From contig JBBQKJ010000007.1 in the NCBI GenBank assembly GCA_038326775.1, positions 16,826 to 80,825 on the forward strand: a DNA stretch of 64,000 nucleotides. The letters run 5' to 3'. The notes below the pieces were generated by a model. That model saw only the letters and a list, made by a program, of their open reading frames with translations, did no database searches and was not told where the DNA came from. Position numbers and translations under genes: made by a program. Source of the stretch: Candidatus Geothermincolia bacterium. GTDB lineage: Bacteria; Actinomycetota; Geothermincolia; Fen-727; Anoxymicrobiaceae. Positions 3,239 through 63,156 of this stretch are shown here, piece by piece. Numbering within the stretch: the first letter of the stretch is position 1; each line of letters begins with the position of its first letter.

Positions 3239-3283
3239 ACTAATGAAATCAGATCTGACCCCGATTATTAGCCCCGATTATTA
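3239..3283. repeat. Half-copy (one arm) of the palindromic intergenic element, with a tandem duplication of its terminal 13-mer (gccccgattatta x2)
   Basis: ctaatgaaatcagatctgaccccgattatta is followed by gccccgattatta. It is identical to the right arm of the full elements at 16768-16860 and 38241-38334. Its final TTA (3281-3283) is the TAA stop codon of ruvC on the minus strand. Confidence 0.6.
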
Positions 3284-3769
3284 GCCGGTCAGCTCCTTGA
3301 GCCGCCTGGACTGCAGGTGGCATATCGCCATCGCCAGGGCGTCCGAGGCGTGCAGGGTGGCCGGCTGCTCCTTGAGGCCCAGAAGAGCGCCCACCATGTA
3401 GGCGACCTGCTCTTTTTTCGCGTTGCCGTTGCCCACGACCGCCATCTTCACCTGGAGGGGGGTGTATTCATCCCAGGGCTTTCGTGCGTGCCTGCAGGCG
3501 AGCAGTATCACACCGCGCGCCTGTCCCACCGTCATGGCGGTCTTCTGGTTTGTGTTGAAGAAAAGCTGCTCCAGCACCACCACGTCGGGGTCAGTCTCCA
3601 CGATAACCTTCGCGATCTCCGTGTAGAGGATATCAAGACGCTCGGACATGTCCGCCGAGCCCTTGGTTTTTATCGCTCCGTGGCTGAGCGCGCGCATCCG
3701 GCCGGACTCCTCGGCGACCAGGCCGTAACCGGTGTTGGTTATCCCCGGGTCTATGCCCAGCACCCTCAT
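3281..3769 (-). CDS. ruvC: Crossover junction endodeoxyribonuclease RuvC
   Basis: MRVLGIDPGITNTGYGLV matches the RuvC N-terminus, including the catalytic Asp. Overlaps yebC by 4 nt. Confidence 0.9.
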   Translation of the reverse strand: MRVLGIDPGITNTGYGLVAEESGRMRALSHGAIKTKGSADMSERLDILYTEIAKVIVETDPDVVVLEQLFFNTNQKTAMTVGQARGVILLACRHARKPWDEYTPLQVKMAVVGNGNAKKEQVAYMVGALLGLKEQPATLHASDALAMAICHLQSRRLKELTG

Positions 3770-4562: not shown

Positions 4563-5168
4563 CTACCCCGCCTGTTTTACCTGTTCGACCATCTCCAGGA
4601 AGTAGCGGTGTATCCTGTCGTCATTGGTCAGCTCCGGGTGGAAAGCGCCGAGAAGAAATGTGCCTTCGCGCGCCATCACCACCCCCTCCTCTAAGCTCGC
4701 CATGACCTCGACCCCGGGGCCGGCCTCCTCGATTACCGGCGCCCTTATGAACACGGCCCGGAACGGGCGGTCCTCCTCGGCTATCCCCCTGACCAGGATA
4801 TCTCTTTCGAAGGAATCGACCTGGCGCCCGAACGCGTTGCGCTCGACCGTCACATCGGCGAGCCCCAGCACGCTCCCGTGCCTGCCTTTGACCCGCTGCG
4901 ACAAGATGATAAGCCCCGCGCAGGTCCCGTAGACAGGTGTGCCGCTCCTGCCGAGCCTGATGAGCTCGGGCACGAAGCCGTACTCATCAATTAGTTTCCC
5001 AATGGTGGTGCTTTCTCCTCCAGGGATGATGAGTCCGTTTACGCCGTTGAGCCCGGAAGGGCGTTTTATGCCGACCCCCCGGGCCCCGCATCGCTCGATC
5101 ATCTCGAGGTGCTCCCGGACCGCTCCCTGCAGAGCCAGAACCCCGATGGTTGTGTTGTTACCAGCCAC
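4563..5168 (-). CDS. pdxT: Pyridoxal 5'-phosphate synthase glutaminase subunit PdxT
   Basis: [13 protein letters not shown]...IPGGESTT... The catalytic Cys sits in GTCAG and the His/Glu in AFHPE. Paired with pdxS. Confidence 0.9.
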
Positions 5169-6051
5169 GGAACTGTATCAGGTTCTCCTTTGCGATCTCC
5201 CCTATCTCGAGGCCGGGCATCGCCTCGCCCAGGCCGCGGGAGACCTCGGCTATCAACGCTGCATCCTCGAAGTGGGTGGTCGCCTGAACGATGGCCTTCG
5301 CTCTTGTAGCGGGGTCCTCCGACTTGAAGATGCCCGAGCCCACGAACACGCCGTCCGCCCCGAGCTGCATCATGAGCGCCGCGTCGGACGGGGTTGCGAT
5401 GCCGCCCGCCGAGAAGTTGACCACCGGCAGCTTGCCCTCGCGCGCCACCAGGACCACCAGGTCGTACGGGGCGCGAAGCTCCTTGGCGGCGGACATCAGC
5501 TCCTCCTCGGGGAGGGTTGTGAGCCTGCTCAACTCGCCGTTGATGGTACGCATGTGCCGCACGGCCTCGACCACGTTGCCTGTGCCAGCCTCGCCCTTGG
5601 TGCGTATCATGGCGGCGCCCTCGCCGATGCGGCGCAGCGCCTCGCCCAGGTTAATGGCCCCGCACACGAACGGGACCTTGAACTTGCGCTTGTTGACGTG
5701 GTTGGCTTCGTCCGCCGGCGTGAGCACCTCGCTCTCGTCGAGGTAGTCGACGCCCAGCGCCTCGAGCGCCTGGGCCTCCACAAAATGCCCGATACGGCAC
5801 TTGGCCATCACCGGGATGGTGACCGCCTCCATGATGCCGGTGATGACGTCGGGGTCGGCCATGCGCGCCACGCCCCCGGAGGCCCGGATGTCAGCCGGGA
5901 CGCGCTCCAGCGCCATCACGGCGACCGCGCCCGCCTCCTCGGCGATACGAGCGTGCTCGACGCTGACGACGTCCATGATGACCCCGCCCTTGAGCATCCG
6001 GGCGAGACCCCTCTTCACCGTGTCGGTGCCCTTCTCAGCCTGATTTTCCAC
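5158..6051 (-). CDS. pdxS: Pyridoxal 5'-phosphate synthase lyase subunit PdxS
   Basis: [18 protein letters not shown]...[13 protein letters not shown] are the PdxS signature blocks. The start was moved to the in-frame GTG at 6049-6051, which is preceded by AAGGA. The maximal ORF start at 6120 adds 23 non-conserved residues. Confidence 0.88.
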
Positions 6052-6123
6052 GTTTTTTCCTTTATTCAGGGAGATAACCCCATGATAGCGAATAGGGTGG
6101 TTGGCTGCAAATAGACGCACGTT

Positions 6124-13388: not shown

Positions 13389-13446
13389 AGCGCCACCGCC
13401 ATGCGCGAACCGCGTAAATCGTTTATCATTTCAACCATAAATGCAA

Positions 13447-13469
13447 GAAAGTAACCTGACCCCGATGTT
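13447..13469. repeat. Solo copy of the 15-mer TGACCCCGATGTTGC (arm-like fragment of the palindromic element family)
   Basis: Exact 15-mer shared with 63134-63148 and, as an inverted copy, with 63057-63071. It shares the core CTGACCCCGAT with the 94-bp elements. Confidence 0.45.
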
Positions 13470-13492
13470 GCACGGACGGAGGCGGCAAGCGC

Positions 13493-16091: not shown

Positions 16092-16756
16092 CTTTCCAGT
16101 GCCCTCCAGACCTCGATCAGCCTCTCGACCAGGGTCTCGACCAGTAGAACGGCAAGCACCCACAGCACCACCCTGAGCACCCAGGGCGAGAGCCCGTTGA
16201 AGAAAAGCCCCACCATGAGCAGGATGATGCGCGGCGCCCTGGCCATCAAGCCGGCCTTGCAGTGCACGTCGAGGGACTCCGCCCTGGCCCTGACATAGCT
16301 GATGAGGAACGAGACCACCAGCACCACTAGCGCCAGTCCGACGTAAATGCCCTCGGTACGCTTCATGTAGTAGACGACCAGGCCAAGGTAGATGGCCGCG
16401 TCGCTCAGGCGATCGGAAAACGAATCGAGGAACGAGCCGAAGACGGTTATCCGGTCAAGTTTCTTCGCGACGTATCCGTCGACGATGTCGAGTATTCCCG
16501 AGAGGGTGAATAGGACCGCGGCGAGGGGAACGCTCCCCACGCTCAAGAAATAGCCGCTGGCGATGGCGAGCGCCAGCCCGAACATGGTGATGATGTTGGG
16601 CGATACGCCCAGTTTCCCGAAGAACCACGTAAACGGGCGGAACACGAAGTCTGAAAACCATCGCAGGCCCTCGTCCATCTTCTGCCCGCGCGTCGGAGCG
16701 GCATGCGCGGTCTCCATCGCCTCTCCTGCTTGATCGACCTTCGCGTCGCCTTCCAT
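16088..16756 (-). CDS. CDP-alcohol phosphatidyltransferase (PgsA/PIP-synthase-like)
   Basis: Motif DIVDGYVAKKLDRITVFGSFLDSFSDRLSD fits D-G-x2-A-R-x8-G-x3-D-x3-D. Six TM segments. ATG at 16754-16756 is preceded by AGGAGGGG. Confidence 0.8.
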   Translation of the reverse strand: MEGDAKVDQAGEAMETAHAAPTRGQKMDEGLRWFSDFVFRPFTWFFGKLGVSPNIITMFGLALAIASGYFLSVGSVPLAAVLFTLSGILDIVDGYVAKKLDRITVFGSFLDSFSDRLSDAAIYLGLVVYYMKRTEGIYVGLALVVLVVSFLISYVRARAESLDVHCKAGLMARAPRIILLMVGLFFNGLSPWVLRVVLWVLAVLLVETLVERLIEVWRALER

Positions 16757-16767
16757 TTACCCCTCCT

Positions 16768-16860
16768 GATAATTGGGGTCAGATCTGATTTCATCAGTCA
16801 AGCTCAGGGTGGATCAGGCGAGATCGACACTGATGAAATCAGATCTGACCCCAATTATTA
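16768..16860. repeat. 93-bp palindromic intergenic element (perfect 28 to 31-bp inverted arms, 30-bp unique core)
   Basis: The left arm gataattggggtcagatctgatttcatcagt and right arm actgatgaaatcagatctgaccccaattatta are exact reverse complements. The terminal TTA (16858-16860) is the stop codon of the upstream minus-strand DUF2007 gene. The SD and ATG of the CDP-alcohol transferase follow 5 nt beyond the left arm. Confidence 0.8.
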
Positions 16861-17073
16861 GTCTATGTCCCAGATCTCGTTCAGTATTGCTCGAGCCTCC
16901 TCCGCGCGCTCCTCGGGCACCAGCACTCCGTGCTGGCCTCCGATGCCGGTGTAAGCGGAAGCTCCGGGCCGCCTTAGCATGACCGGGATGCCCTCCGCCC
17001 TGACGGCGGACTCGAGCATGCCCGCGGCTATCTGGTCCGGCGCCGTGGCGACCTCGGCCCACTCCCGGGGCAC
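16858..17073 (-). CDS. Small DUF2007-like protein (putative signal-transducing PII-like fold)
   Basis: ...LESAVRAEGIPVMLRR...HGVLVPEERAEEARAILNEI fits the DUF2007 pattern. Start chosen at the GTG at 17071-17073, 10 nt past the proS stop. The maximal ORF overlaps proS. Confidence 0.45.
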   Translation of the reverse strand: MPREWAEVATAPDQIAAGMLESAVRAEGIPVMLRRPGASAYTGIGGQHGVLVPEERAEEARAILNEIWDID

Positions 17074-17083
17074 GCCCGTCAAC

Positions 17084-18790
17084 CTACGGCGCTTCGGCGA
17101 GGGCCCTTTCGATCTCTCCGGCGGCGGACTCAAGAGGCGCCTCCCTCCTCTCACCGGTGCAGCGAAGCTTCAGGTCCACCGTGCCATCCGCAAGCTTCTT
17201 GCCCACCACCACCTGGAGGGGCAGGCCCACAAGGTCGGCGTCGTTGAACTTGACCCCCGGGCTCGCCTCGCGGTCGTCGAGCAACGCCTCGAGCCCGCGC
17301 CCGGCGAGCTCGCTCTCGAGCCGCCGTGCCGCCTCAGCCTGCTCGGTCCTCGACGGGGCGACAACAATTATCTCCACCGGCAGCGGGGCGACGGCCCTGG
17401 GCCACCTGATGCCCGCCTCGTCGTGGTGCTGCTCGACAACCGTCTGGAGCATGCGCGAGGTCCCGATGCCGTAGGTGCCCATGATGATAGGGCGGAGCGC
17501 GCCGTCCCTGTCGGTGAACTCGACCTTGAGTGCCTTGGTGTACCTGGTGCCCAGCTTGAATATATGACCGATCTCGATTCCCCGGGCGATGTCGAGCCTG
17601 CCCTCACACCTGGTGCAGAGGTCGCCTTCGACGGCGCCCGCAACATCGGCGGTCGGTTCCGCGGAGAAGTCACGGCCTTCCTCGACCCCCCTCAAGTGAT
17701 AGTCCGGCTTGTTCGCGCCGCAGGCCAGCCCGCGCGCTCCCATGATCTCGCGGTCGAACATCACTCGCGCGCCCGCAAGCCCCACCGGGCCGGTATAGCC
17801 GGGCGTGACCGCGGGATGGGACTCGCGCTCGTCGTCCCGCATCACGTGAAACTCGTCAGTGCCGAGCGCCCGCGCCAGTTTCGCCTCGGAAACCTCCCGG
17901 TATCCGGGAACGAACACGGCCAGCGGCTCTCCCTCGACCACGTACAGGACGCACTTGAGGACGTCGTCTGACGTGGTGCCCAGGAACCCGGCAACCTCGG
18001 CAACCGTCACAAGACCTGGGGTATGGACCTCCTCCAGCGGCGGGGACTCCCCGCCCCCGAACCGGCGGCCGGGACGGTGCGCCTCGAGTTCTGCGTTCGC
18101 ACCGTAATCGCACTCCTCGCAGTAGACCAGCACGTCCTCCCCGACCTCGGAGACTACCATGAACTCATGGGAGACGTCACCACCGATCAGCCCGGTCGAA
18201 GCCTCGACTACCTTTGCCTGGAGGGAACACCTGAGCGCCACCGTGGAGTACGCCTCGCGCATGCGCTCGTAAGTGAGCTGGAGGTCCTCCTCGTCAGCGT
18301 GGAAGCTGTACGCGTCCTTCATCCTGAACTCGCGGCCGCGCAGCAGCCCGAACCGGGGCCTTATCTCGTCGCGGAACTTTGTCTGGATCTGGTAGAGGTT
18401 CACCGGCAGGTCACGGTAGGACGGCGCCGTCCTGCCGACCATCGACGTGATGAGCTCCTCGGCGGTGGGTCCGAGGCAGAAGTCGCGGCCGGCGCGGTCC
18501 TTTATCCTCATCATCTCGGGGCCGTAAGCGTACCAGCGGCCGCTGGTCATCCAGGGGTCAGCGGGATGGAGGGAAGGCAGAACGACCTCGAGAGCCCCGG
18601 CGGCGTTCATCTCGTCGCGGACTATTCCCTCGATCCTGGCAAGCGCCAGGCTGCCGAGCGGCAGCAGCGTATATATGCCGGCGGCCACGGACCTCAGCAT
18701 GCCGGCCCGCAGCAGCAGCTCGTGGCTGATTATCTCGGCCTCGGCCGGCTTCTCCTTCAGCGTCGGCACTATGACCCGCGAGAACTTCAA
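17084..18790 (-). CDS. proS: Proline--tRNA ligase ProS (bacterial type with editing domain)
   Basis: 568 aa. MKFSRVIVPTLKEKPAEAEIISHELLLRAGMLR N-terminus, class II motifs and a C-terminal anticodon-binding domain. Confidence 0.95.
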   Translation of the reverse strand: MKFSRVIVPTLKEKPAEAEIISHELLLRAGMLRSVAAGIYTLLPLGSLALARIEGIVRDEMNAAGALEVVLPSLHPADPWMTSGRWYAYGPEMMRIKDRAGRDFCLGPTAEELITSMVGRTAPSYRDLPVNLYQIQTKFRDEIRPRFGLLRGREFRMKDAYSFHADEEDLQLTYERMREAYSTVALRCSLQAKVVEASTGLIGGDVSHEFMVVSEVGEDVLVYCEECDYGANAELEAHRPGRRFGGGESPPLEEVHTPGLVTVAEVAGFLGTTSDDVLKCVLYVVEGEPLAVFVPGYREVSEAKLARALGTDEFHVMRDDERESHPAVTPGYTGPVGLAGARVMFDREIMGARGLACGANKPDYHLRGVEEGRDFSAEPTADVAGAVEGDLCTRCEGRLDIARGIEIGHIFKLGTRYTKALKVEFTDRDGALRPIIMGTYGIGTSRMLQTVVEQHHDEAGIRWPRAVAPLPVEIIVVAPSRTEQAEAARRLESELAGRGLEALLDDREASPGVKFNDADLVGLPLQVVVGKKLADGTVDLKLRCTGERREAPLESAAGEIERALAEAP

Positions 18791-38208: not shown

Positions 38209-38237
38209 ACTATAGCAGAAGAGCCCCACCTGTGGAA
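38209..38237 (-). promoter_or_regulatory. Candidate sigma-70-type promoter for rplS (TTCCAC-N17-TATAGT on the minus strand)
   Basis: Read on the minus strand: TTCCAC aggtggggctcttctgc TATAGT. It lies about 40 nt upstream of the rplS ATG, immediately downstream of the palindromic element. Confidence 0.35.
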
Positions 38238-38240
38238 CAT

Positions 38241-38334
38241 TAATACCTGGGGTCAGATCTGATTTCATTAGTTGCATCCCCCTGGCTGTGCCACCGCCAA
38301 GAACTAATGAAATCAGATCTGACCCCGATTATTA
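38241..38334. repeat. 94-bp palindromic intergenic element (perfect 27-bp inverted arms, unique 33-bp core)
   Basis: The left arm taatacctggggtcagatctgatttcattagtt and right arm aactaatgaaatcagatctgaccccgattatta are inverted repeats. The terminal TTA (38332-38334) is the trmD stop codon. It lies between trmD and rplS. Confidence 0.8.
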
Positions 38335-39018
38335 CAGCAGGTCGGGGCGGCGCCTGCGGGTGCGCTCCAGCGCCTGGGCCTCTCGCCACTGCTTTATGCG
38401 CCCGTGGTCTCCGGAGATAAGCACCTCCGGGACATCCCAGCCACGGTAGCTCGCCGGCCTGGTGTAGTGCGGGTACTCCAGCAGTGGACGGGCGAACGAC
38501 TCCTCGGCCAGCGACTCGCTGTTGCCCAGCGCGCCCGGCAGCAGGCGAGCCACCGCTTCGAGCACGACCGCGGCCGCGATCTCTCCCCCCGACAGGACGA
38601 AGTCACCCACCGATATCTCCCGGCCGGCCAGGTGCTCGCGCACGCGCTCGTCCACTCCCTCGTAGCGCCCGCACACGAAAACCAGAGTCTCCTCGGAGGC
38701 CAGGGCACGCGCCGTCTCCTGGTTGAATCGCTCCCCCTGCGGTGTGAGCAGTATGACCGGGAGCCGGTCCCGCAGCTCCGAGAAGTCGCCGCCGAAGACG
38801 CTCTCGACTGCATGCGCCACCACGTCCACCCTCAGCACCATTCCCGGACCGCCACCGTAAGGAGCGTCATCGACCTTGTGGTGCGGGTCCGGCGACAGCT
38901 CGTGCAGGTCGTGAAGGAGGACCTCCAGCGCCCCGGCCTCACCGGCGCGCCTGAGAACGCCTGCCCCCAGCGGCGAGGCGAGAACCTCGGGAAGCGCACA
39001 GAAGACGTGGACCTTCAA
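38332..39018 (-). CDS. trmD: tRNA (guanine37-N1)-methyltransferase TrmD
   Basis: MKVHVFCALPEVLASPLGAGVL... plus the SPOUT knot region. Lies between rimM and rplS. Confidence 0.95.
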   Translation of the reverse strand: MKVHVFCALPEVLASPLGAGVLRRAGEAGALEVLLHDLHELSPDPHHKVDDAPYGGGPGMVLRVDVVAHAVESVFGGDFSELRDRLPVILLTPQGERFNQETARALASEETLVFVCGRYEGVDERVREHLAGREISVGDFVLSGGEIAAAVVLEAVARLLPGALGNSESLAEESFARPLLEYPHYTRPASYRGWDVPEVLISGDHGRIKQWREAQALERTRRRRPDLL

Positions 39019-55769: not shown

Positions 55770-55916
55770 CGCCCTGGATTCATCTCTCATCGTTAACACC
55801 CCAGGACAGGTTCTCTCTCGGGGAGTGCGTTCCTGCGTCAACATAACCCCGGGGACGACCGGGGCCACGCGGACGGCGGCTCGACTCAAGAAAACAGGTC
55901 AGACCCCTTGTAAAAG

Positions 55917-56432
55917 CTACTCTTCGGTCTCGCGGTCGTACTCGTCGTCCTCCTCGAGAGGAGCCTCGTCGTAGCCGCGCAACTTTTCGCGCCATGAGCT
56001 TATGCGGTTCAGGATCTCGTCGGTGGAATCCTTCACCTCGATGAGGGACGCCTCGAGCTCACCGAAGATACGGTCGGCAACATCCTCGGCGTCGTATACT
56101 ATCTTGCGCGCCTCGTCCTGGGCTTCGTCAATCATGTGGTCGCGCTCGAGTTCCGCCTGCTTTATTATCTCGGTCTGCTTGACCATGTCGTCAGCTTGCT
56201 TCTCCGCGCGTTCGAGGAGCTCCTCCTCCTTGCGCTGGGCCTCTGACATGATGCGGTCGCGGTCTTTGGATACGATCCGGGCCTGCTTGAGCTCGTTGGG
56301 CAGGGTGGCGCGGATGTCGTCGAGAAGGTCGTAGAAATCCGCCTCTTTCAACATGACCGATGAGGAAAGCGGCACCCGCTTGGAGTTCGCGATGAAGTCC
56401 TCAAGCTTGTCTAGACGAGCGAATATGTCCAT
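55917..56432 (-). CDS. Coiled-coil acidic protein (ATP synthase b/DivIVA-like helical protein), function unknown
   Basis: Entirely helical and charged (EEELLERAEKQADDMVKQTEIIKQAELERD...) with an acidic C-terminus. A similar small coiled-coil gene precedes yceD in Actinobacteria. Confidence 0.42.
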   Translation of the reverse strand: MDIFARLDKLEDFIANSKRVPLSSSVMLKEADFYDLLDDIRATLPNELKQARIVSKDRDRIMSEAQRKEEELLERAEKQADDMVKQTEIIKQAELERDHMIDEAQDEARKIVYDAEDVADRIFGELEASLIEVKDSTDEILNRISSWREKLRGYDEAPLEEDDEYDRETEE

Positions 56433-59787: not shown

Positions 59788-62214
59788 ATGACATCAGTTT
59801 CCAGACCCCGGGCCCTCACGGGATGGTTCAAGTCGAAGATAACCGGCGCGGTCGTGAGCAAGCTGGTCAGGAAGTTCGGCATCCCCAAAAGCGCGGTGCG
59901 CAACCTGCGTTCGTGGGGCAAACTCTCCCAGGAGGGCGGGGGCGGCTTTCCCACCGAGCTGTTGCCTCTTGGGGCCAACATGTGGTCCGGGTTCGTCCTG
60001 ACCACCTTCGCCAGGCAGCTCATGGGTGGGTGGGTGCTTCCATACTGGCTGCGGCGGCAGGGCTCACCGGCGTCACCCGCGTTCGTGCCCCACGGTCACG
60101 CCTGGCTGACCCAGAACCTTACCGGGCGCAACTGGACAGGCATAGGCATCTGCGGCTTCCCTAACGAGGCTATCGTGGACCCAAGGGGCCTCGTCACGCC
60201 GTGGCCGTTCGCGCCCTCGATCGACGTCTGGATGAAGGTCGGCGATGAGCTCCATTGCCCTTCAGAGCGAGACGAAGTCGAGCAGGCGCTCCTCGAAGGC
60301 TTTCCCATCGTGCGGACCTCCTTCGAGGCCGGCGGACTGGAGTGCGCCCTCATCACCTTCGTCGCGCCGTTGGATGGGATGCCGGTGGTGCTCGGCACCG
60401 CCGAGGTGACAGGCGCGCCCCGAGGGGCGCTGCCCGTTTCGCTGGTCGTATCCGTGCGCCCGTACAACCCGGAGACGATCTGCGCCGTGAACGAGCTGGC
60501 TTACGACCCTGTCTCGCATACTTTCACCGCCGATGGAGGCACACTGCTCTATCTCCCCGCGAAGCCGGACGAGGTCATATTCTCCGACCTGGCCCACGGC
60601 GACGTGGCGATGCTCCTGAGCGACCCCGGGCGCAAGAGGCTGCCGGGGGGCTCACTTGAAGTGCAAGAGCCGACCGGGCTCGCCAGCGCGGCCGCCGTCT
60701 ACACCGTGGACCTCTCCGGAGGTGGGAGCGAATCCGTCTGCTTCGCATGCCCGCTATCGGCGGGCGTGCATCCCGACTTTCTGAGTATGCTTCCTGAGCG
60801 CGGGTCCCTCGCGATAGCAGAGAAAAAGCTTGCCGGGCAGCTTGAGAGCTGGTCGGAGGTCGCCTCCCTCGGGATGCGCGTGAGCGTGCCCGATGAAGCG
60901 CTCCAGCAGGCGTTCGACGCCAACAAGGCGTTCCTGCTGCTCCTCTTCGACGGGCAAGCCATAACGCCGGGGCCGTCCACCTATCACATGATGTGGTTCC
61001 GCGATGCGGCATACCTCGTGCCCGCTCTCACCCGCATAGGTCACGCCCAGAAGGCGCGCGACGTTCTTTCCACCTATCCGGACCGCCAGGCCGAGGATGG
61101 GTTCTTCCGCTCGCACGACGCGGAGTGGGACTCCAACGGTCAGGCGATATGGACGCTCGTTGACCATTATCTTATGACCGGAGACGAAGAGTTCCTGCGC
61201 GGGGTATATCCATCCATCATCAAGGGAGCGCGCTGGATAGATGATAAGAGGCAGGCAGGCCTGCCGGCGGGCGACCCGCGGCGAGGCCTCCTTCCGGCCG
61301 GCGTAAGCGCGGAGCACTTCGGCGCAAACGACGTCTACTACTGGGACGACCTATGGGCGGTGGCGGGCCTGAGGGCGGCCGCGGGCGCCGCGCGCGACCT
61401 CGGCCTCGAATCGGATGCGCGGTTCATGGACAGGGTGGCGCGTGAGTTATGGGCCAGCCTCGAGGCGTCGTGGCGCTGGGTCGAGGGCAGGCTGGGGCGC
61501 CGCGTGATACCGAGCGCGCCGGGGCGCGACATCGACGCTGGGAGCATCGGCTCGGTCGCCGCGGTGCACCCTCTCGGCCTGATCGGGGCGGGCGAGGAGA
61601 TCATGCTCAATACCGTGGACACGATCGTCGAGAGGTGCTTCTACCGCGATATGCATTTCCACGCCATCATGCACCAGGGGCTGAACGCCTACATGTCGCT
61701 CGAGGTCGCGCAGTGCTACCTGCGCCGGCGAGACCCCTACGCGCTCAAGATATTCGACTCGCTCTGGTCGATGGCAAGCCCGACGTTCACTTATCCTGAA
61801 GCAATAAACCCGGTCAGCGGCGGAGGCGCGTACGGCGACGGGCACCACGGCTGGGCGGTGGCGGAGTTCATCAACTTCACGCGCAACCTGCTGCTGTTCG
61901 AGGAGGGCGACAGGCTTGTGCTGCTGCCGGTCGCACGATTGGAATGGCTCGAGCCCGGCAAGCGCATCGAGGTCGAGGGGGCGCCGACGTTGTTCGGGGA
62001 GTTCTCCTACACGGTCGATTGCGAAGCTGATGCGATAACCTTCGACCTGCGGGGCGACCTGGCGCGGCCGCCCTCCGCCATCGAGCTGAACGTCCCCTTC
62101 GCCATCACATCGTGCGAGGTCGACGGCGAGACGGTCGAGGTCGGGGAAGGAGCCATGTCCGTTGACATCCGGCCCTCGGCGGGGAAAGTGCGCCTCTTTA
62201 TCATGCGCGGGTGA
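59788..62214 (+). CDS. Large glycoside-hydrolase-like protein, six-hairpin (alpha/alpha)6 barrel type (glucoamylase/trehalase GH15-like), N-terminal beta-sandwich
   Basis: 808 aa. The central and C-terminal region has (alpha/alpha)6-barrel-like blocks (MMWFRDAAY, YYWDDLWAV, GGAYGDGHHGWAVAEF). The family assignment is tentative. Confidence 0.55.
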   Translation: MTSVSRPRALTGWFKSKITGAVVSKLVRKFGIPKSAVRNLRSWGKLSQEGGGGFPTELLPLGANMWSGFVLTTFARQLMGGWVLPYWLRRQGSPASPAFVPHGHAWLTQNLTGRNWTGIGICGFPNEAIVDPRGLVTPWPFAPSIDVWMKVGDELHCPSERDEVEQALLEGFPIVRTSFEAGGLECALITFVAPLDGMPVVLGTAEVTGAPRGALPVSLVVSVRPYNPETICAVNELAYDPVSHTFTADGGTLLYLPAKPDEVIFSDLAHGDVAMLLSDPGRKRLPGGSLEVQEPTGLASAAAVYTVDLSGGGSESVCFACPLSAGVHPDFLSMLPERGSLAIAEKKLAGQLESWSEVASLGMRVSVPDEALQQAFDANKAFLLLLFDGQAITPGPSTYHMMWFRDAAYLVPALTRIGHAQKARDVLSTYPDRQAEDGFFRSHDAEWDSNGQAIWTLVDHYLMTGDEEFLRGVYPSIIKGARWIDDKRQAGLPAGDPRRGLLPAGVSAEHFGANDVYYWDDLWAVAGLRAAAGAARDLGLESDARFMDRVARELWASLEASWRWVEGRLGRRVIPSAPGRDIDAGSIGSVAAVHPLGLIGAGEEIMLNTVDTIVERCFYRDMHFHAIMHQGLNAYMSLEVAQCYLRRRDPYALKIFDSLWSMASPTFTYPEAINPVSGGGAYGDGHHGWAVAEFINFTRNLLLFEEGDRLVLLPVARLEWLEPGKRIEVEGAPTLFGEFSYTVDCEADAITFDLRGDLARPPSAIELNVPFAITSCEVDGETVEVGEGAMSVDIRPSAGKVRLFIMRG

Positions 62215-63054
62215 GCCCCCCTCACACCTCTCACGCGCGGGTGAGCCACCCTGTCCCCGCGAATTCCCGCGCCTCGTTCAACATGAAGGATGACATCGGA
62301 CAGAAGGACGCTTCCATCAAAGTGTTCAGCGACGTGCCGGTCATCCCTGAGCGCGCCATGTACAAGGACTCTCGCCGCGAGGGGCACGACTCCATCGGCA
62401 CCACCAGCCCGGCCTCGGACTTCTACCTGGCGGAAGGGACCACCACCTGGGGCTTTACGACCTACGTGCTGGTTCAGAATCCCGGCAACGAGACCAACGA
62501 CGTCACGATGACGTACATGACCGGTTCCGGAGCGAAAGCGCAGGCGCCGTTCACTATGGGACCGAACTCGCGCAAGACCATAAGGGTGAACGACGTGTCC
62601 GGCATGGGCAACACGGACTTCTCGACCAGGGTACACGGCTCCAAACCTGTCATTGCCGAGAGAGCCATGTACTGGGGATCGGGCACAACGCTCGGTGAAG
62701 CGTGCCACGACTCCATCGGAATGGCATCGCCGCACATGACCTTCTATCTTCCCGACGGCCAGGCCGACGCCGATACCGAGACCTGGACGCTCGTCCAGAA
62801 CCCCAACAGCAGCCCCGTTACGGTGGACATCACGTACCATGACCCCGTCGGGGACAGGGAACATCACCAGGACTGAGACCATCGGAGCCAACTCGCGGGT
62901 CACCTTCGGGATGCAGCAGCACTCCAACCTTGAGGGGCGCGCATCGATCCTGGTGAAGAGCAGGACCGCCGGCAAGAAGATAATGGTAGAACGCTCCATG
63001 TACTGGAGCGGCAAGGGCGCGGGTACCGACACGATCGGCGGGTATTCGGACTAG
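62211..63054 (+). CDS. Tandem-repeat protein (about 2.3 copies of a 110-aa unit) interrupted by a +1 frameshift near 62845-62850
   Basis: ORF 62211-62876 and ORF 62839-63054 carry the same repeat unit (PVI[AP]ERAMY...HDSIG...FYL.[ED]G...TW.LVQNP...T..TY-M-T.SG...). Removing one C in taccatgacc restores ...ITYMTPSGTG..., parallel to ...MTYMTGSGAK in repeat 1. The start (GTG at 62211) overlaps the upstream hydrolase stop. Confidence 0.45.
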
Positions 63055-63055
63055 C

Positions 63056-63150
63056 GTAACATCGGGGTCCGGTCAAGAAGCTGCGTTTTCCGGCTGGGGT
63101 CATGTCGAACGTCTGCAATGCGGTTTTTTGACCTGACCCCGATGTTGCGT
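63056..63150. repeat. Variant copy of the palindromic element family (arms gtaacatcggggtccggtcaag / cttgacctgaccccgatgttgc, 49-nt core)
   Basis: The inverted arms match at about 20 of 22 positions around the conserved ATCGGGGTC/GACCCCGAT core. It begins 2 nt after the TAG stop of the repeat-protein gene. Its right arm forms the -35 and spacer of the rpmB promoter. Confidence 0.6.
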
Positions 63151-63156
63151 TATTAT
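63128..63156 (+). promoter_or_regulatory. Near-consensus sigma-70 promoter for rpmB: TTGACC-N17-TATTAT
   Basis: TTGACC (63128-63133), 17-nt spacer (tgaccccgatgttgcgt), TATTAT (63151-63156). AGGAA SD and the TTG start of rpmB lie about 35 nt downstream. Confidence 0.5.

Follow-up and report, generated by a model that had tools for sequence, protein, structure and literature searches.

Palindromic repeat elements at gene stop codons in Candidatus Geothermincolia

Insertion of Correia/NEMIS and ERIC elements is TA-flanked. These elements are co-transcribed with adjacent genes, and their RNA hairpins have been proposed as RNase III substrates that affect the neighbouring mRNA (PMC2229807). IS630 favours the TA of CTAG and duplicates these 2 bp on insertion (PMC2577343, table 1), and REP sequences occur as dimers with variable spacers, can lie less than 20 bp from ORF ends and have termini that provide stop codons (PMC3733652). 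Here, we describe short palindromic elements from a 64-kb stretch of DNA (the whole of which we call the window) and from related loci, with likenesses to several of these systems. Where such an element abuts a gene, the stop codon repeatedly lies at one fixed position in the element's tip. The best explanation, judged from comparison of the sequences, is a superfamily specific to Candidatus Geothermincolia/Anoxymicrobiaceae-like Actinomycetota and marked by the subterminal core GGGGTCAG. Its members are probably non-autonomous palindromic MITEs that target TA/CTAG, reuse the TA of a stop codon and rebuild TAA.

Structure of the elements and their junctions in the window

The 20-mer GGGGTCAGATCTGATTTCAT, which marks the arm of what we denote family 1, occurs five times in the 64-kb window and 0 times in shuffles. 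Two inverted pairs (16775/16833 and 38249/38307) belong to the only complete family-1 elements of the window, each of 94 bp; the fifth occurrence, at 3243, is unpaired (Table 1). On the upstream gene's coding strand, the layout is TA-ATA-nnn-GGGGTCAGATCTGATTTCATTAGT, a centre of 28-30 nt, the inverted arm and TA, with arms of 33 bp that are 91-97% complementary to each other. The ORF calls contain no credible ORF inside the 94-bp elements of the window.

Table 1 Features of the window discussed in the text
Feature	Position	Strand	Basis or remark
Solo family-1 arm between ruvC and ruvA	3239..3270	-	32-nt identity to arm 38303-38334
13-nt tandem duplicate of arm tip, CTAATAATCGGGG (coding strand)	3271..3283	-	Carries ruvC stop
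Solo sister-family unit TGCAAGAAAGTAACCTGACCCCGATGTTGCA	13446..13476	+	Divergent intergenic region, not at a stop
Shine-Dalgarno GGAGGGG and ATG start of pgsA-like gene	16754..16766	-	Adjoins element tip
Complete family-1 element between DUF2007 gene and pgsA-like gene	16767..16860	-	Repeat search, fold
rplS promoter-like site	38209..38236	-	TCCACA, 16 nt, TGnTATAGT
Complete family-1 element between trmD and rplS	38241..38334	-	Repeat search, fold
Distal arm of that element	38241..38273	-	Ends 4 nt before rplS -35 hexamer
Proximal arm of that element	38302..38334	-	trmD stop TAA 38332-38334, second in-frame TAA 38329-38331
Solo GGGGTCTGACC-type arm	55884..55919	-	9 nt after TAG 55917-55919 of ORF 55917..56432
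Paired sister-family element, arms ..CGYAACATCGGGGTC..	63052..63152	+	Starts at upstream ORF's TAG (63052-63054), before rpmB

Full family-1 copies fold as RNA into an almost perfect stem of 33 bp, with a minimum free energy (MFE) of -54 to -63 kcal/mol (-53.6 kcal/mol for the trmD-rplS element and -55.9 kcal/mol for the DUF2007-pgsA element). An alignment of six full copies retains the same 33 consensus pairs, three of them with compensatory changes; a preliminary description of this DNA had counted a 27-bp hairpin, which is too short. A lone 32-nt arm folds weakly (-2.1 or -7.2 kcal/mol, depending on the strand), and the palindrome inside it, TCAGATCTGA, is only 10 bp long. We rejected a reading of the single arm as a stem-loop closed by CTAAT/ATTAG, except as a part of the REP-like alternative below, given this weak fold and tips that proved compensatory in three cases, mismatched in three and wobble-paired in three. 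A search for intrinsic terminators found none at either full element of the window (the tails are AGGTATTAATG and AATTATCAGG), and Rfam returned 0 matches at the gathering score across the whole window, so both a terminator and a known RNA family were discarded as identities.

Family-1 tips are CTAAT/ATTAG and family-2 tips TGCAACAT or CGYAACAT, and GTAG or CGTC tags are absent from both. The ends read TA-ATAnnnGGGGTCAG in family 1 and TA-(A)TGCAACATYGGGGTCAGG in family 2. Four of the six full family-1 copies have TA at both tips and two have CA on one side; this variant, TATCAG, is found in at least five independent arms, and the distal tip of the DUF2007-pgsA element is TATCA, not TATTA. Centres are similar in length (27-32 nt) and mostly unrelated between copies, with weak similarity at unrelated loci (L003 and L025; L016 and L020).

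Three zero-distance abutments of element and stop codon had been claimed, and the ORF calls agree on the stops themselves (trmD 38332-38334, DUF2007 16858-16860 and ruvC 3281-3283, all TAA). The first two abutments stand. Both trmD (ORF 38332..39018, minus strand) and the DUF2007 gene (ORF 16858..17154, minus strand; the Pfam match was seen on its orthologues) end at the element's outermost TAA, at bases 6-8 outward from CCCC and inside the conserved tip TATTA. On the coding strand, the gene ends are CTG CTG TAA TAA TCGGGGTCAGATC and GAC TAA TAA TTGGGGTCAGATC, respectively, and the candidate target TA at the trmD end is 38333-38334. On the far side of the trmD element the rplS promoter follows as described; its TATAGT box and context are conserved in all orthologous loci. 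The pgsA Shine-Dalgarno sequence, in contrast, does not lie 5 nt past its element, as had been stated: GGAGGGG starts at the element's last bases.

The third abutment is of another kind. At the end of ruvC (3281..3769, minus strand) stands a single arm with no inverted partner; its canonical TTA is at 3268-3270, and the ruvC stop lies 13 nt beyond this, within the second copy of CTAATAATCGGGG. An orthologous solo arm is present at the ruvC end in L015, where the tip duplicate is a 6-nt version (CTGATA twice). Two copies of CTAATAATCGGGG occupy 3258-3283 of the window, and three copies are found in L044 and L045, from two Logan assemblies, both at contig ends and with RuvC 100% identical. Because this copy number varies, we regard the ruvC junction as a slippage-prone repeat and not as a third canonical abutment. 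RuvC ends ELTG with the arm and ELTGT/S elsewhere, and is thus one residue shorter; the empty ruvC end of L046 reads ACG TAA followed by 111 nt.

Stop codons and the insertion site

A metagenome scan with the arm 20-mer yielded 21 loci, in which arms were oriented outward and only ORFs with coding-like GC3 were accepted as facing genes. In nine of the 16 gene-facing arms, the stop of the inbound gene falls exactly at bases 6-8 outward from CCCC. Eight of these stops are TAA and one is TGA (L003, with the tip variant TATCA). Among other gene-facing arms, one has its stop in a duplicated tip, one is 2 nt off (L006), one is a read-in and five lie 5-40 nt from the stop; the other arms look onto a downstream start or onto non-coding DNA. 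Of the seven independent paired elements, none lacks an arm on a stop, and in L016 the two arms are on the stops of convergent genes. A seemingly two-sided case in L003 was rejected: the GC3 of the ORF at its second arm is 0.44, and 39 nt separate the arm from the end of the real gene. We also set aside an exact 20-mer match in a soil metagenome (L012, 7215-7234), where the 20-mer opens an ORF, MKSDLTPRMLNHAAYVTHD.. (MKSDLTP..), and is probably due to chance or coding because no element flanks it.

This register is far from random. Stops at an in-frame TAA outnumber read-ins by about 10 to 1, compared with about 1 to 2 for random insertion into gene ends, and the chance that a random position and strand meets one of the roughly 63 stops of the window is about 5e-4. 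Independent loci in other samples repeat this register. Some departures from it use stops further inside the element. The first TAA is mutated to CAA in L022, where the element's second TAA is the stop; a 292-codon gene in L013 continues for seven codons within the arm (..INKWGQI*), as far as the TGA inside TCAGATCTGA; and a gene in L048 reads into the element and stops at its internal TGA.

The sole clean empty/occupied pair comes from family 2. The empty junction is that of L023, where a gene of 338 aa meets a convergent LUD-domain gene and their stops overlap at CTAG (CCC GTC TAG AGG CCG); the occupied junction, in L029, reads CCA TA[A TGCAACATTG...CAATGTTGCAT T]TA GAG GCC. Between the two states TA has been duplicated, both genes have come to end in TAA and both C-termini are unchanged. 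Similarly, FtsY ends ..ALF TGA where the site is empty and ..ALF TAA where it is occupied, and UPF0102 ends ..AF TGA or ..AF TAG when empty and ..AF TAA when occupied. Orthologues with and without elements mostly have the same C-terminus (FtsY, UPF0102 and TrmD).

TAA is the rarest stop codon of this genome (about 57% TGA, 30% TAG and 13% TAA). It accounts for eight of the 63 stops in the window, three of these eight being at elements, and for five of the five element-adjacent stops in 20 kb of L029. Because TAA is rare overall yet concentrated beside elements, we infer that it is made by the insertion. Only 27 of the 318 TA sites that are non-coding or within a stop (8.5%) lie in stops, and thus the availability of TA alone cannot account for the stop bias. 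The 64 kb contain 16 CTAG tetranucleotides. Of the CTAGs that are non-disruptive, about half (counted across seven loci) coincide with stops, and the availability of CTAG largely accounts for the bias. When the sequences on either side of each of the six full family-1 copies are joined, the result is CTAG in four cases, ATAG in one and CTAA in one. Two of these joins, GAC TAG GAGGGGTAA ATG (DUF2007/pgsA) and GGC TAG GAGGG..ATG (L005), have the form of a normal operon junction whose TAG stop overlaps the Shine-Dalgarno sequence. Codon bias and Shine-Dalgarno sequences, however, also favour C in front of a stop and G behind it.

For family 1, searches with tblastx and blastn over all loci collected returned no empty orthologues of the metagenome loci, and the target TA is inseparable from the element, because TA and the adjacent C/G are also in the repeat (CTAAT...ATTAG). 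Family 1 itself would duplicate TA as its sister does; one family-2 pair, at position 20597 of L023, has no flanking TA. Three window junctions are not simple insertions, the native spacer or last codon being missing relative to the nearest empty orthologues. The spacer of 18-22 nt between the trmD stop and the rplS -35 in empty orthologues is missing from the window. L025, with a TrmD 92% identical to that of the window (global alignment), has the same family-1 element and one codon more (CTG CTG GAC TAA TAT TCGGGG); its protein ends ..LLD, and relatives end ..LLE or ..LLD. The nearest empty trmD sites are those of L030 (..GAA TGA) and L031 (..GAG TAA). Compared with its counterparts in L039 and L042, the window DUF2007 protein lacks 2-5 residues. 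Remodelling of junctions by slippage, small deletions and conversion clearly happens, and the element's own stops then matter.

The preliminary description had offered two options, insertion specificity for TA/TAA or element-borne stops that replaced the original gene ends. The first is better supported, by the TA duplication in the sister family, although the clean pair is not one of family 1; the second holds for a minority, namely the shortened RuvC, the backup TAA of L022 and the read-ins of L013 and L048. The orthologue alignment that it proposed gives mostly unchanged C-termini, with RuvC and DUF2007 shorter, and a TA at the empty site in the sister family only.

Sister families and turnover at orthologous junctions

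The sister families have the core in common with family 1, differ in outer and inner sequence and start 0-4 nt from stops. At window position 63052, TAG is followed directly by CGTAACATCGGGG, and junctions in relatives include TAA/TGCAACATC, TAA/A/TGCAACATT and TGA/A/CGCAACATC. Short stems covary among family-2 units (GCAACA/TGTTGC and GCAAAAA/TTTTTGC) around the same loop, and two family-2 copies in one genome have the whole centre in common.

Occupancy of a given junction changes between relatives. The trmD end carries family 1 in the window and L025, family 2 in L029, a family-3 element nested into a family-2 remnant in L048 (where the protein tail ..GSGLES* and the TGA are element-encoded) and a collapsed relic, GGGACAGGCCTGACCCCAG, in L023; it is empty in L030 and L031. 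The convergent junction is empty in L023 and holds family 2 in L029 and family 3 in L048. Nested insertions and hot spots thus occur among element sites. Although the flanks of the orthologous copies in L016 and L022 are 93% identical, none of their three variable tip bases agrees, which argues for replacement or conversion and not for slow drift.

Several of these sites carry observations of their own. In L029 (GCA_936417815.1, 10691-10795), the family-2 element stands in place of the native spacer and the rplS -35; because 17-18 nt separate its distal arm, GTGACCTGACC, from the conserved TATAGT box and the native -35 is replaced, TGAC of the repeat core may act as the rplS -35. In L048 (10670-10702), the inserted repeat encodes the TrmD tail as GGG TCA GGT CTT GAA TCG TGA, and another TrmD tail, ..GSDPGSKT*, is also repeat-encoded (GGGTCAGACCCC); the tails are found in proteins P0004 and P0005. 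In L023 (10688-10710), the TGA of trmD is followed by cagGGACAGGCCTGACCCCAG, and the distal junction, CCCCAG/ATGTTTC, is in common with the window element; the relic resembles what a deletion between the TCAGATCTGA palindromes of the two arms would leave of an element. Two further sites lie in the window. At 5130-5160 (minus strand), the TAA stop of gene 5158..6123 is followed by CAACACAACCATCGGGGTTCTGG, which resembles a decayed family-2 tip (..AACATCGGGGTCAGG). The adjacent plus-strand ORFs of 221 aa and 71 aa at 62211-63054 both contain ERAMYW/ERSMYW..G..D.IG and resemble the two parts of a single repeat-domain gene interrupted by a frameshift or stop.

Among species-representative genomes, the arm 20-mer matched only a Candidatus Anoxymicrobiaceae MAG (Actinomycetota, class Candidatus Geothermincolia), and protein searches returned many relatives at 75-96% identity, several of them named Anoxymicrobiaceae, Geothermincolia or Actinomycetota. 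Viral contigs gave 0 matches for family 1 or family 2, and a phage or viral origin was accordingly dropped; an attC-like or CRISPR-like nature was dropped in view of the housekeeping operon junctions, inverted repeats and dispersed copies. The loci examined contain no core pairs 0.8-3 kb apart that enclose a candidate gene, and neither they nor the window contain a transposase with matching ends. A literature search for the core sequence found nothing relevant.

Public short-read assemblies break inside the arms (L033-L038, L044/L045 and many of L002-L022), and copy numbers in MAGs will therefore be too low; some solo arms could be assembly products. All six contigs with a 96%-identical PgsA break inside the distal arm of the DUF2007-pgsA element, and the L033-L038 contigs all begin 25-52 nt before pgsA.

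Origin of the elements and comparison with known systems

Insertion of a TA-targeting MITE would proceed as follows. The element would integrate at TA and duplicate it, mostly within C-TA-G, in the manner of IS630/Tc1-mariner transposases; a transposase of this kind would be the likely mobilizing enzyme. In a genome of 64% G+C, CTAG is almost absent and TA rare, and for this reason many of the harmless TA/CTAG sites would be TAG or TAA stops, including convergent CTAG overlaps. The left copy of TA together with the repeat's first base, A, would rebuild TAA at the old position, two-thirds of the new stop coming from the target and one-third from the element; because the stop is rebuilt in place, the upstream protein would be unchanged and the insertion tolerated. 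The next TAA and the TGA inside TCAGATCTGA would be wholly element-borne, and would take over after slippage or mutation, or when the junction lies a few bases inside the gene. If transcribed, the element would form the 33-bp hairpin. Such elements would be an example of a transposon insertion that is silent as far as the upstream protein is concerned, achieved by target choice (TA in CTAG) and one repeat base, and would explain why housekeeping genes of Candidatus Geothermincolia end in an otherwise rare TAA followed by a long palindrome and why public assemblies break at such gene ends. They also carry a warning for annotation: C-terminal tails such as the ..GSGLES* of TrmD are element-encoded.

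The strongest competitor, which we hold to be possible but improbable, takes the 32-nt arm (CTAAT-GAAATCAGATCTGACCCC-nnnT-ATTAG) as the unit, occurring in REP/REPIN fashion as singletons and as inverted dimers with variable spacers. It would spread by a REP-associated tyrosine transposase (RAYT) or by recombination, without target duplication, and the stop would be wholly element-borne, the TAA within the CTAAT at the tip; REPs offer a parallel, their GTAG tips supplying TAG. Much of the architecture fits. Arms bounded at both ends, CTAAT...ATTAG, are found alone about as often as in pairs; spacers are of similar length and mostly unrelated sequence; in L017 and L018 a family-2 unit and a family-1 unit form a hybrid tandem; family-2 units have covarying stems around one loop; and elements are located downstream of unidirectional ORFs and between convergent ones. 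As element sequence the tip variant CTGAT/ATCAG is easier to understand than as duplicated target, and REP dimers with variable spacers and stop-supplying termini are on record (Di Nocera et al. 2013, PMC3733652). The TA duplication in the clean sister-family pair, however, speaks against it, as do the missing GTAG or CGTC tag and the two family-2 copies with a common interior, as in MITEs. Single arms fold weakly (-2 to -7 kcal/mol), unlike REP units, each of which is a good palindrome by itself. The very little sequence that could be searched for a RAYT gene contained none.

A related reading, in which the centre is native intergenic DNA between two independent arms, was prompted by short matches to empty trmD spacers. 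We excluded it, since there is no significant similarity to empty spacers, centres show weak similarity across loci and family-2 copies share theirs.

Insertion of MITEs at TA could also be cast in a stronger form, which we consider doubtful. A transposase would prefer the C-TA-G or TA-A of stop codons, CTAG overlaps between convergent genes among them; the tips, with A first, then TAA and then a TGA in another frame, would be shaped to leave a working stop at every insertion; and the unusually conserved arms would have been co-opted as 33-bp hairpins that punctuate operons (trmD-rplS and DUF2007-pgsA). If this were true, gene ends would be a safe harbour for the element.

It is still less likely that the hairpins, whatever their origin, are RNA features selected by the host, serving as an RNase III site or a block to 3' exonucleases that separates the expression of operon neighbours, with selection keeping the stop inside the base of the 33-bp stem. 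Between the window and L025, the arm is identical at 25 of 25 positions, compared with 21 of 30 in the centre and 85% at third codon positions, and the stem is very stable, with three compensatory pairs among six copies. Arm conservation fits transposase binding, conversion between copies or re-insertion equally well, however, and arm conservation and the compensatory changes can together come from transposition needs or conversion. In L042, an empty orthologue, the DUF2007 stop lies 1 nt from the pgsA ATG (TGA g ATG), which indicates coupling of the two genes; in the window the same distance is 96 nt, with a strong pgsA Shine-Dalgarno sequence and the hairpin between. Uncoupling of neighbouring genes by the element is thus plausible, because rplS keeps its own promoter and the pgsA Shine-Dalgarno sequence adjoins the tip across this hairpin-bearing gap. 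But close relatives (L030, L031, L046 and L027) have no element at these housekeeping junctions, and since different families fill them elsewhere, no particular element is required. The changed tips of L016 and L022 within 93%-identical flanks, the lack of a terminator-like tail and the lack of an Rfam match also weigh against selection for an RNA. Coincidence or an annotation artefact, with random intergenic landing and AT-rich tips that happen to meet short spacers, can point to the arms away from stops (L001 group, L007-L010, L018 and window 13446) but is scarcely credible given that nine of the 16 arms facing a gene are in exact register, as are one or both sides of every pair (seven of seven, from different samples), when only 8.5% of tolerable TA sites are in stops.

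Compared with described systems, the elements resemble Correia/NEMIS of Neisseria and ERIC of enterobacteria as palindromic repeats, but those are 100-150 bp long, whereas the present element has 94 bp and an unrelated sequence. Likenesses to REP/REPIN sequences (PMC3733652) are more extensive. Both are found downstream of ORFs, either singly or as inverted dimers with a larger hairpin; the dimer spacers, 20-100 bp in REPs, may differ in sequence and not in length, as they do here; and both include sites within 20 bp of ORF 3' ends, convergent and unidirectional genes, supplied stops and hybrid dimers. The present elements differ in lacking the GTAG/CGTC tag, in a unit that is a poor palindrome, in the TA duplication of the sister family and in their host phylum, Actinomycetota, the word 'Actinobacteria' being absent from the text of PMC3733652.

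RUP of Streptococcus pneumoniae, which is linked to IS630-Spn1, is likewise a short, non-coding hairpin with long terminal inverted repeats that inserts at TA with a 2-bp duplication (PMC2229807). The TA duplication of the sister family in CTAG, and the CTAG reconstructed for four of six family-1 copies, would place the present elements close to IS630 and RUP in their mode of insertion; they are not known to resemble either in sequence. The stop-codon bias and the first A that rebuilds TAA are absent from the description of RUP, and a hypervariable centre, common solo arms and loci that, as far as examined, hold no cognate transposase set the present elements apart from IS630-type MITEs. TA-targeting MITEs and repeat tips that supply stops are both already described, and current views of them are unchanged by these elements; the element family itself and its host lineage appear to be new among such systems.
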